Source: a virus
Lineage: Duplodnaviria; Heunggongvirae; Uroviricota; Caudoviricetes
Strand: one strand, 5' to 3'
IMG/VR virus record: IMGVR_UViG_2695420589_000004
Length of the DNA stretch: 4,438 nucleotides
The notes beneath the pieces were generated by a model that had not been told where the DNA came from, ran no database searches, and saw only the letters and a list, made by a program, of their open reading frames with translations. Below, piece by piece: positions 146 to 4,427 of the stretch; position 1 is the first letter of the stretch; every line of letters starts with the position of its first letter. Position numbers and translations under genes: made by a program.

Positions 146-496
146 ATGCCATCACTAATCCCACGTGCCTGCCGTAAGCGTGGATGTGCAGGTACAACCA
201 CAGACAGTTCGGGTTACTGCGATAAACATCGCGGTGAAGGCTGGGTGCAGCACCAGCGCGGACTGAGCCGCCACCAGCGTGGCTATGGCTCAAAATGGAC
301 GGTGATTCGTGCCCGTATTCTGAAGCGCGATAAAGGTCTGTGTCAGTTGTGTCTGCGTGTCGGTGTGGTGAGCGAGGCGAAAACCGTCGACCACATCATC
401 CCGAAAGCGCATGGCGGAACAGACGCAGACAGCAACCTGCAGAGTCTGTGCTGGCCCTGCCATAAAGCGAAAACAGCGCGCGAACGAATCCGGTGA
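146..496 (+). CDS. HNH endonuclease, terminase-associated (HK97 gp74-like)
   Basis: 116-aa ORF with ATG at 146 preceded by GAGG at 137-140 (5-nt spacer). The protein has paired Cys motifs (CQLC and CWPCH) flanking a DH catalytic dyad (VDHIIPKAHGG, nt 389-394) and a conserved Asn (SNLQSL), which is the classic HNH/zinc-finger architecture. There is an additional N-terminal Cys/His cluster (CRKRGCAG...YCDKH). It sits immediately upstream of terS, which is the typical location of the packaging HNH in HK97-like phages. Confidence 0.9.
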   Translation: MPSLIPRACRKRGCAGTTTDSSGYCDKHRGEGWVQHQRGLSRHQRGYGSKWTVIRARILKRDKGLCQLCLRVGVVSEAKTVDHIIPKAHGGTDADSNLQSLCWPCHKAKTARERIR

Positions 497-518
497 TAAT
501 TATTCTCACTTGTAGGGA

Positions 519-578
519 GGGGCGGGGCAAATCCCTGTGACCTGACGTCTTCCGGACTGCCCGCCCCATCGTTTTTTT
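519..578 (+). terminator. GC-rich imperfect inverted repeat followed by a T7 run; putative intrinsic terminator after the HNH gene, or alternatively part of the cos region
   Basis: Left arm GGGGCGGGGCA (519-529) pairs with right arm TGCCCGCCCC (558-567): 8 G/C base pairs, a one-base bulge, then 2 more pairs. TTTTTTT follows at 572-578. The loop is about 28 nt, which is long for a canonical terminator, hence the moderate confidence. Confidence 0.4.
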
Positions 579-593
579 ATACCCGCGAAAAAT

Positions 594-639
594 GAAATTT
601 AACCAGGAGTGCCGCATATGGCTGGAACGGCGGGGGGGT
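594..639 (+). repeat. Direct repeat, copy 1 of the terS ribosome-binding site and start region; abuts N-run 640-724
   Basis: The 46 nt gaaatttaaccaggagtgccgcatatggctggaacggcggggggt match 725-770 with one mismatch (637 g versus 768 c). The copy includes AGGAG and an ATG at 618 in the same arrangement as the real terS start. Confidence 0.9.
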
Positions 640-724
640 NNNNNNNNNNNNNNNNNNNNNNNNNNNNNNNNNNNNNNNNNNNNNNNNNNNNNNNNNNNNN
701 NNNNNNNNNNNNNNNNNNNNNNNN
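640..724. other. N-run (85 nt); masked sequence or scaffold gap
   Basis: Contiguous n characters. Confidence 1.
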
Positions 725-770
725 GAAATTTAACCAGGAGTGCCGCATATGGCTGGAACGGCGGGGCGTT
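725..770 (+). repeat. Direct repeat, copy 2; this is the genuine terS ribosome-binding site and start region
   Basis: Near-identical to 594-639 and continues uninterrupted into the terS coding sequence. Confidence 0.9.
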
Positions 771-1243
771 CCGGGCGTCGCCCCAAGCCAACGGCGCGCA
801 AGGCGCTGGCCGGAAACCCCGGCAAGCGAGCCCTGAACAAAGATGAACCTGTTTTTACGCCCATCAAAGGTGTTGAGCCACCAGAGTGGTTCGCTGAAGA
901 AGATCTCCCTCTCGCCACGATCATGTGGCAACTGACAACCAAAGAACTCTGCGGTCAGGGCCTGCTGTGCGTGACTGACCTGGCGGTACTTGAGCGGTGG
1001 TGCGTGGCCTATGAGTTCTGGCGACGTGCCGTGAAAAATATTGCCATACAGGGCAACACCATCACCGGTGCAATGGGCGGCAGGGTCAAAAATCCGGAGC
1101 TGACCGCCAAAAAAGAACAGGAGTCCGAGATGAGCAGCACGGGGGCAATGCTCGGACTCGACCCCAGCAGCCGCCAGCGTCTGATTGGCCTGGCGGGGCA
1201 GAAGAAAGCCACTAACCCGTTTCTGAAAATTATCGAATCATGA
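749..1243 (+). CDS. terS: Phage terminase small subunit, P27 family
   Basis: ATG at 749 with AGGAG at 736-740 (8-nt spacer). The ORF track starts at GTG 740, but ATG 749 has the better RBS spacing. The N-terminus [30 protein letters not shown] matches the characteristic basic 'GRPPKPT...GNPGKR' signature of P27-family small terminases. Length is 164 aa. The TGA stop at 1241-1243 overlaps the terL ATG (ATGA), indicating translational coupling. Confidence 0.9.
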
Positions 1244-2986
1244 GCCGGAAATCTTACCCCAACGTAAATGCTGCAAATCAGTATGCCCGGGATGTCGTGC
1301 GCGGAAAGATTGTTGCCTGCCAGTTTGTGATTCAGGCCTGCCAGCGCCATCTTGATGACCTGATGGCGGAAAAAAGTAAGTCGTTTCGTTACCGCTTCGA
1401 CAAGGACCTGGCTGAACGGGCCGCGAAATTTATTCAGCTGTTGCCGCACACCAAGGGGGAGTGGGCATTCAAACGGATGCCCATCACGCTGGAGCCGTGG
1501 CAGCTATTTGTGATCTGCTGTGCGTTTGGCTGGGTCAATAAAGGCACCCGGTTGCGCCGCTTCCGGGAGGTGTACACCGAAATCCCCCGTAAGAACGGCA
1601 AATCAGCAATCTCTGCCGGTGTTGCCCTGTATTGTTTTGCCTGTGATAACGAGTTTGGCGCGGAAGTGTATTCCGGTGCCACGACAGAGAAACAGGCGTG
1701 GGAAGTCTTTCGCCCGGCGCGACTGATGTGTAAACGCACACCCATGCTGACGGAAGCGTTCGGGATTGAGGTTAACGCCTCAAACATGAACCGTCCGGAG
1801 GATGGCGCGCGGTTTGAACCGCTGATCGGCAACCCAGGTGATGGTTCATCACCCCACTGTGCCGTGGTTGATGAATATCACGAGCATGCCACCGATGCGC
1901 TTTATACCACAATGCTTACCGGGATGGGGGCGCGACNNNNNNNNNNNNNNNCAGCCACTGATGTGGGCCATCACCACCGCCGGGTACAACATTGAGGGGC
2001 CGTGCTACGACAAGCGGCGGGAAGTCATCGAGATGCTCAACGGCTCGGTGCCTAACGATGAACTGTTCGGGATCATCTATACCGTTGATGAAGGTGACGA
2101 CTGGACCGGCCCGCAGGTGCTGGAAAAAGCCAATCCAAATATTGGCGTGTCGGTTTATCGCGAATTTTTGTTAAGTCAGCAGCAGCGTGCGAAAAATAAC
2201 GCCCGTCTGGCAAACGTCTTTAAAACAAAACACCTCAATATCTGGGTGTCGGCGCGTTCGGCGTATTTCAACTTGGTGAGCTGGCAGAGCTGCGAGGATA
2301 AATCACTGACCCTTGAGCAGTTCGAGGGGCAGCCGTGCATTCTGGCCTTTGACCTGGCGCGTAAGCTGGATATGAACAGCATGGCGCGACTTTATACCCG
2401 CGAGATTGACGGTAAAACGCATTACTACAGTGTGGCCCCGCGTTTCTGGGTACCGTATGACACGGTGTACAGCGTCGAGAAAAATGAAGATCGACGGACA
2501 GCCGAACGCTTTCAGAAATGGGTGGAAATGGGCGTTCTGACCGTTACCGATGGTGCGGAGGTGGATTATCGCTACATCCTCGAGGAGGCCAAAGCGGCGA
2601 ACAAAATCAGCCCGGTCAGTGAGTCACCCATCGACCCCTTCGGGGCGACCGGGTTGTCACATGACCTTGCTGATGAAGACCTGAATCCCGTCACTATCGT
2701 CCAGAACTTCACCAATATGTCCGATCCGATGAAAGAGCTGGAAGCAGCGATTGAATCGGGACGTTTTCATCATGACGGCAATCCCATCATGACCTGGTGT
2801 ATCGGCAACGTGGTCGGCAAAAACATGCCGGGTAACGATGATGTGGTGAAACCCGTCAAAGAGCAGGCGGAAAACAAAATCGATGGTGCAGTTGCGCTGA
2901 TTATGGCGGTTGGCAGAGCCATGCTGTACGAGAAAGAAGACACGCTGTCTGACCACATTGAGTCCTACGGGATCCGCTCGCTTTAA
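1240..2986 (+). CDS. terL: Phage terminase large subunit (ATPase plus nuclease), interrupted by N-run 1937-1951
   Basis: ATG at 1240 overlaps the terS stop. The long ORF ends at TAA 2984-2986. Before the N-run the sequence reads ...[25 protein letters not shown], and after it ...[24 protein letters not shown]... Both parts look like one terminase large subunit of about 580 aa, with the N-terminal ATPase region and the C-terminal nuclease region. The reading frame changes by +1 across the 15-nt N-run, so the N-run length is probably not the true length. Confidence 0.88.
1937..1951. other. N-run (15 nt) inside terL
   Basis: Contiguous n characters. terL is in frame 1 before the run and frame 2 after it. 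Confidence 1.
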
Positions 2987-2997
2987 CTGAGGTAATT

Positions 2998-3198
2998 ATG
3001 ATCATGCTGATTCTCGCGCCTCTGGTGGGCGTGCTGGGTGCGCTTTTGCTGGCGTATGGTGCCTGGCTGATTTATNNNNNNNNNNNNNNNNNNNNNNNNN
3101 NNNNNNNNNNNNNNNNNNNNNNNNNNNNNNNNNNNNNNNNNNNNNNNNNNNNNNNNNNNNNNNNNNNNNNNNNNNNNNNAGTCTGTCGGCGGAGGTAA
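2998..3198 (+). CDS. Small hypothetical membrane protein (single predicted TM helix), partly masked
   Basis: ATG at 2998 with GAGGT at 2989-2993. The visible N-terminus [26 protein letters not shown] is a hydrophobic, helix-like segment. After the N-run the same frame reads ...VCRRR and stops at TAA 3196-3198, if the N-run preserves length. It lies 11 nt after the terL stop and ends inside the portal RBS. The 3' boundary is uncertain because of N-run 3076-3179. Confidence 0.4.
3076..3179. other. N-run (104 nt)
   Basis: Contiguous n characters. Confidence 1.
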
Positions 3199-3201
3199 AT
3201 A

Positions 3202-4427
3202 GTGTTCTTTTCGGGATTATTTCAACGAAAAAGCGATGTGCCGGTGACCACGCCAGCAGAACNNNNNNNNNNNNNNNNNNNNNNNNNNNNNNNNNNNNNN
3301 NNNNNNNNNNNNNNNNNNNNNNNNNNNNNNNNNNNNNNNNNNNNNNNNNNNNNNNNNNNNNNNNNNNNNNNNNNNNNNNNNNNNNNNNNNNNNNNNNNNN
3401 NNNNNNNNNNNNNNNNNNNNNNNNNNNNNNNNNNNNNNNNNNNNNNNNNNNNNNNNNNNNNNNNNNNNNNNNNNNNNNNNNNNNNNNNNNNNNNNNNNNN
3501 NNNNNNNNNNNNNNNNNNNNNNNNNNNNNNNNNNNNNNNNNNNNNNNNNNNNNNNNNNNNNNNNNNNNNNNNNNNNNNNNNNNNNNNNNNNNNNNNNNNN
3601 NNNNNNNNNNNNNNNNNNNNNNNNNNNNNNNNNNNNNNNNNNNNNNNNNNNNNNNNNNNNNNNNNNNNNNNNNNNNNNNNNNNNNNNNNNNNNNNNNNNN
3701 NNNNNNNNNTCAGGTGACGTTTCCGGATGGTTCCGTGGATGTGTTGACCCAGAATGAAATCTGGCATGTGCGCACCCTGACGCTGGATGGACTTGTCGGG
3801 CTGAATCCCATTGCGTATGCGCGTGAGGCCATTTCACTGGCAGCGGCAACCGAGGAGCACGGTGCCAGGTTGTTTAGTAATGGTGCGGTGACATCCGGTG
3901 TGTTGCGTACGGAACAAAAGCTCACGCCGGATGCTTACGAGCGTCTGAAGAAAGATTTTGAGGAGTGTCACACGGGGCTTGGCAATGCTCACCGCCCGAT
4001 GATTCTGGAAATGGGGCTGGACTGGAAGTCGATGGCGCTGAACGCCGAGGACAGTCAGTTCCTGGAAACCCGCAAGTTTCAGCTGGAAGAAATCTGTCGT
4101 CTGTTCCGGGTGCCGTTGCACATGGTGCAGAACACCGATCGCGCCACCTTCAACAATATCGAAGAGCTGGGGCTGGGATTTATCAACTATTCACTGGTGC
4201 CGTATCTGACCCGCATCGAACAGCGGATCAACACCGGACTGGTACGAAAAAGTAAGCAGGGCGTTTATTACGCCAAATTTAACGCCGGGGCGTTACTGCG
4301 CGGGGATATGAAGTCCCGTTTTGAAGCCTACGCCACCGGGATCAACTGGGGAATTTACTCTTCCAATGACTGCCGCGACCTGGAAGATATGAATCCGCGT
4401 CCCGGTGGTGTAATGCCGATCAGTTAA
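3202..4427 (+). CDS. Phage portal protein, HK97 family, with a 447-nt N-run inside (3263-3709)
   Basis: GTG at 3202 with a strong GGAGGT at 3191-3196 (5-nt spacer) and an in-frame TAA immediately upstream at 3196-3198. The visible N-terminus is MFFSGLFQRKSDVPVTTPAE. The unmasked C-terminal part (3710-4427) reads ...NPIAYAREAISLAAATEEHGARLFSNG...EDSQFLETRKFQLEEICRLFRVPLHMVQN...YLTRIEQRIN..., which is typical of HK97-family portals. The total span of about 408 codons is the expected portal size. The N-terminal and C-terminal parts are in different frames across the N-run, so the join is inferred. AAGGA at 4426-4430 suggests the next gene, expected to be the head protease, starts just past the window. 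Confidence 0.78.
3263..3709. other. N-run (447 nt) inside the portal gene
   Basis: Contiguous n characters. Confidence 1.

Follow-up and report, generated by a model that had tools for sequence, protein, structure and literature searches.

A doubled terS start in an SfIV-like prophage scaffold, read as an unmerged overlap of contig ends

Introduction

The deposited phages closest to the prophage considered here are the Shigella serotype-converting phages SfIV (99.3% identity), SfV, SfII, and SfI. The 10-nt cohesive end of SfI, TGCCCGCCCC, was determined experimentally (PMC3636060), and SfIV, SfII, and SfV are reported to share this end without change (PMC3851460). The same module is present in over 1,000 complete E. 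coli genomes.

The window, by which we mean the whole 4,438-nt stretch of IMG/VR record IMGVR_UViG_2695420589_000004, is a draft scaffold, assembled from short reads, of a prophage of the SfIV/SfV kind (HK97-type, cos-packaging). Like SfIV, SfV, SfI, and SfII, it presents the order HNH, cos, terS, terL, and portal, shares the cohesive end, and has terS and terL sequences 97.7–99.3% identical to theirs. The HNH-type gene that lies at the right end of SfIV shares only 74% identity with the window's HNH gene, as against 99% in terS/terL. As written, the scaffold carries the ribosome-binding site and start codon of terS twice, on either side of a run of Ns. Comparison with gap-free relatives leads us to conclude that this duplication is almost certainly an assembly artefact and that the genome has a single terS start.

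Organization of the packaging region

The first gene of the region, at 146–496 on the plus strand and upstream of cos, encodes an HNH endonuclease (PF01844, E = 1.6e-16), as it is also annotated in the closed reference. The cohesive-end sequence assigned by identity to the SfI determination (558–567, plus strand) separates the HNH gene from terS, with the repeat 27 nt farther downstream. The small terminase subunit gene terS occupies 749–1243 (plus strand) and encodes a 164-aa protein of the P27 family (Pfam Terminase_4; PF05119, E = 3.7e-20), the score of 72.6 bits standing above the curated cut-off of 24.7. Its SfIV counterpart is CDS 68–562, and closed E. coli genomes also label it as P27 family; the terS Shine-Dalgarno sequence, AGGAG at 736–740 (plus strand), can be read directly 8 nt upstream of the ATG. 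The large subunit gene terL follows at 1240–2986 (plus strand) in two pieces around a 15-N run, which breaks its frame artificially, with the ATPase domain represented by PF03354 and the nuclease domain by PF20441. Downstream of terL are a short ymfR-like ORF and then the portal protein gene (PF04860). The succession of HNH, cos, and terminase genes is what we take to be the standard HK97-like arrangement.

The deposited phage records are opened close to cos, that of SfI starting at window position 568 and those of SfIV and SfV at 551; the SfIV record is linearised between window positions 550 and 551. An imperfect GC-rich inverted repeat spans this region, with arms GGGGCGGG (519–526) and CCCGCCCC (560–567), the cohesive end forming the 3′ arm, and a run of seven T residues follows at 571–577. 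Folded as DNA (−13.5 kcal/mol), the cos-region inverted repeat is no more stable than shuffled sequences (z = −1.08), and a scan of 440–639 for intrinsic terminators and promoters returned nothing.

A 44-nt anchor covering the HNH end and cos region (window 492–535) pulled 17 contigs from IMG/VR. Among these contigs (loci L005–L021), three different terS modules follow the anchor, one type diverging from the window at about 591 and another already by 582. Because the HNH gene is so much more divergent from SfIV than terS/terL, and because one anchor leads into three modules, the cos region looks like a mosaic recombination boundary.

The repeat as written in the scaffold

The longest exact direct repeat in the window is 42 nt, with 594–635 identical to 725–766 and a start-to-start spacing of 131 nt; the expectation of an exact repeat of this length arising by chance in 4.4 kb is below 1e-15 by our rough estimate. 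Copy 1 (594–635, plus strand) sits at the 3′ end of the upstream contig (1–639) and contains AGGAG at 605–609 and an ATG at 618–620. Copy 2 (725–766, plus strand), the genuine and only terS leader as judged by the comparisons below, opens the downstream contig (725–1936) at its 5′ end, with AGGAG at 736–740 and its ATG at 749. The initial annotation had drawn attention to this doubling, and its description of AGGAG and ATG-GCT-GGA-ACG-GCG-GGG in each copy, with copy 1 meeting the Ns, can be read from the sequence as given. The repeat is likewise present where it was placed, but its extended 46-nt version contains two mismatches rather than the single one reported. Both are substitutions, G at 636 against C at 767 and G at 638 against T at 769, and they turn GGCGGGGCGTT in copy 2 into GGCGGGGGGGT in copy 1, creating a run of seven G residues; an error in homopolymer length is thereby excluded.

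The N-run between the copies, 85 N at 640–724, is abutted on both sides, copy 1 ending at 639 and copy 2 beginning at 725. The junction from copy to copy consists of Ns throughout, with no sequenced bases joining two units. Taken by itself, the scaffold text, with two copies 131 nt apart, is what a genuine tandem duplication of the terS 5′ end would look like; its unit would be about 131 bp or more, and it would put a ribosome-binding site and ATG ahead of terS as a decoy. The copy boundaries, however, fall exactly on the edges of the N-run, and the period of the supposed duplication depends wholly on the length of that run.

Single-copy structure in gap-free relatives

Six gap-free IMG/VR contigs from different genome projects cover the site, five of them (L011, L013, L015, L017, L019) over the whole window and L018 in part. 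All six match the window at 100% identity wherever it has sequenced bases, positions 636–639 alone being left unmatched. On each of the six, window segments 1–635 and 725–1936 overlap by exactly 42 nt, and copy 1 maps onto the same reference bases as 725–766, yielding one copy. The same 42 nt, covering the terS leader and first codons, are present in both the upstream and the downstream contig of the window.

More distant relatives show the same structure. Window 551–1936 (1,386 nt) corresponds to positions 1–1255 of the SfIV record, which is exactly 131 nt shorter, and the same 131-nt deficit is seen across the site in SfV and in closed E. coli prophages. When the segments are aligned separately by BLAST, window 551–635 falls on SfIV 1–85 and window 725 onward falls from SfIV 44, so that the deficit is explained by the 42-nt overlap of the two window segments on one copy. 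A two-copy pattern with spacing of 116–146 nt gave no match in 185,579 species-representative genomes and 2.9 million viral contigs, in scans that required exact 30-mers from the repeat and in which Ns in the subject sequences may go unmatched.

Among 143 fetched loci, the 42-mer occurs twice in L036 only, where the copies are 2,871 nt apart and lie in two modules that are 97% identical. These modules, each comprising HNH, cos, terS, and the 5′ part of terL, occupy 3101–4274 and 5972–7145 on the same strand (96.8% identity), with a single N (4275) at the end of the first. The L036 pair may represent either two neighbouring prophage remnants or a further scaffold join.

The tandem duplication is absent from the identical and closely related genomes that were compared, the six identical contigs, the close phages, and the closed-genome relatives all being single-copy, and no genome or viral contig scanned matched the two-copy pattern of exact 30-mers. 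We regard a genuine tandem duplication as extremely unlikely. In its strain-specific form, it would be a tandem terS leader with a Gly7 (GGG) upstream copy and a decoy or second start 27 nt downstream of cos, a proposal to which we attach next to no credence.

Reliability of the N-runs as gap estimates

The window contains four N-runs, at 640–724 (85 N), 1937–1951 (15 N), 3076–3179 (104 N), and 3263–3709 (447 N), and the identical gap-free contigs allow each to be compared with the true distance between its flanking contigs. At the first, the flanking contigs overlap (a distance of −42 nt); the true gap is just 2 nt (GT) at the 15-N run, 82 nt at the 104-N run, and 378 nt at the 447-N run. All four are therefore mis-sized relative to the identical sequences. 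The consequences are most visible in terL, where the 15-N run adds 13 nt, accounting for the shift from frame 1 to frame 2 in the ORF list. Given that every run is wrong in length and that one breaks the terL frame, the Ns are scaffold filler and not masks that preserve length; the idea that they are deliberate length-preserving masks was considered and ruled out on the same disagreement. The 131-nt period, as these comparisons indicate, is set by an unreliable N count.

A further consequence concerns what could lie beneath the Ns. The sequence between the two repeats consists only of Ns, and these could in principle hide inserted DNA (a mobile element, for example) with a target duplication of 42–46 nt on its flanks. 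The runs do not preserve length, however, as the terL frame attests; the three runs elsewhere in the window overestimate their gaps rather than underestimating them, and identical strains lack any insertion. To our knowledge, a 42-nt target-site duplication would also be unusual for known insertion sequences. An insertion at this position accordingly seems most improbable. The real duplication and the insertion under a mask, both raised as alternatives in the initial annotation, find no support in single-copy relatives and in N-runs that are not masks. The explanation favoured there, a scaffold join at which overlapping contig ends were left unmerged, is instead borne out by the six identical single-copy contigs, the 131-nt deficit, and the mis-sized N-runs.

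Two other features of the draft can be recorded here. The contig edge at 1936 lies 5 nt past a GGC (1929–1931) in a G-rich stretch, the same context as at the break after 635. An isolated 83-nt contig at 3180–3262, between two N-runs, takes in the last part of the ymfR-like ORF and the beginning of the portal gene, and its flanking gaps are overestimated by 22 and 69 nt; this small island shows the fragmentation of the draft.

Origin of the mismatched tail

The four bases at which the upstream contig departs from its relatives, 636–639 (plus strand), read GGGT where the true sequence is CGTT. The change comprises two apparent miscalls, C to G and T to G, and converts codon 7 of terS in frame from CGT (Arg) to GGG (Gly). 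The same CGT-to-GGG change is found in-line and ungapped in L003 and L004, two further contigs of draft origin, which belong to a different lineage (97% identical to the window in terS/terL and 80% in the HNH region). From these two contigs came a first reading in which GGGT was a real allele of a second prophage.

This reading accepts the duplication as artefactual and holds that the genome contains a second, related prophage whose terS has GGG (Gly7), the contig having broken where the two copies diverge, in what would be a repeat-induced break. It has several points in its favor: the module occurs at a median of 2 and up to 7 places per E. coli genome with a 1.9-kb query, L036 carries two HNH-cos-terS copies on one contig, and the GGG codon preserves the frame and is uninterrupted in L003 and L004. 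The complete genomes, however, do not contain such an allele. Among 5,426 complete E. coli genomes, a 79-mer is present in 1,119 records (1,242 places), with the exact CGT form in 1,034, and the GGG form is found in none of the 1,119 records and at none of the 1,242 places. A 301-nt stretch of L003 reaches 99.3% identity in its top matches among closed genomes, and it differs from the closed E. coli genome EC11 at exactly two bases, those by which GGG departs from CGT. On the strength of the complete E. coli records and of these two bases, the allele was dropped as the main explanation. That GGG is confined to draft-derived contigs of otherwise unrelated lineages, and that the changes match systematic G miscalls in type and context (PMC3141275), also weighs against it, and we consider a second-prophage origin of the tail improbable, if somewhat less so than a real duplication or insertion.

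In IMG/VR, 129 of the 132 occurrences sampled, among the matches listed, have CGT, with GGG in two and GGT in one. The variant positions are at about 2044–2072 (minus strand) in L003, about 3087–3115 (minus strand) in L004, and about 5134 (plus strand, GGT) in L131. Because the change recurs in unrelated drafts, always to G, and never in finished genomes, it is best read as systematic error, and the codon-7 changes in L003, L004, and L131, which predict Arg7 to Gly, are probably sequencing errors of this type that have been propagated rather than polymorphisms.

Sequence-specific errors in Illumina data begin within about 10 nt downstream of GGC (Nakamura et al. 2011, NAR 39:e90, PMC3141275). 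The GGC triplets linked to error tend to have C or T before them and G or T after them, and errors of this kind impede de novo assembly (PMC3141275). The local context in the window is A-C-GGC-GGGG-C-G-T-T-CC, in which GGC at 629–631 sits within C-GGC-G and the first miscall is at 636. Both miscalls are to G (from C at 636 and from T at 638), and the reference base before each is likewise G. If the duplication is an artefact, a sequence-specific miscall is the likely cause of the tail, although we hold this with distinctly less assurance than the artefact itself. The initial annotation was correct in placing an error at the end of the first contig, as the lack of GGGT from complete E. coli records supports, but its attribution to a homopolymer does not stand, the change being two substitutions to G.

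A model for the scaffold join

These observations suggest a route by which the repeat could have been written. A systematic miscall in the G-rich ACGGCGGGGCGTTCC, read as ...GGGGGGGT, would have seeded the contig break. The assembly graph would then branch at a node ending at 635, with the upstream contig following the erroneous branch for 4 nt before dying out and the correct branch becoming a separate contig that starts one k-mer back, its first k-mer being 594–636. The 42-nt overlap would correspond to k−1 for a de Bruijn graph with k = 43, the k value and the behaviour of the assembler both being inferred from the scaffold. A scaffolder ordering the contigs by read pairs would find the overlap concealed by the 4-nt mismatched tail, and it is this concealment that we propose as the reason why an estimated gap of 85 N was written.

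Implications for annotation

Once the overlap is recognized, the region contains one terS ribosome-binding site and one ATG, and removing 131 nt (636–766) gives back the true sequence, by comparison with the gap-free contigs. No decoy initiation site is present. What the region does contain, namely an HNH endonuclease gene, cos, and a single terS start (ATG 749), is the ordinary packaging region of an SfIV-like prophage. The repeat feature has no biological content and should not be made the basis of statements on decoy initiation or on how terS is regulated. Its importance is one of data hygiene only: the scaffold should be collapsed across those 131 nt, as gene callers will otherwise predict a terS start that is truncated and spurious. 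A second hazard of this kind in the scaffold is the spurious terL frameshift or split gene at 1937–1951.

Comparison with known systems

The window invites comparison with phage, sequencing, and assembly systems alike. With the artefact removed, its terS leader is the same as that of SfIV, SfV, SfI, and SfII. The error context resembles that described by Nakamura et al. (2011; PMC3141275) in that the first miscall follows a GGC by 5 nt, the miscalled base equals the preceding base, and the GGG variant is found only in drafts. It differs in its inverted repeat, GGAACG/CGTTCC, which spans 6 bp where those authors describe inverted repeats of 8 bp; folded as a mini-hairpin, the window sequence is no better than shuffles (z = −0.09). 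The closest likeness is to unmerged contig ends in short-read de Bruijn scaffolds, with which the window has in common an exact, k−1-like overlap (42 nt), an N-run of estimated length, erroneous bases at the contig tip, and other gaps that are mis-sized as well. From such scaffolds the window shows no substantive difference, the value of k = 43 being our estimate.
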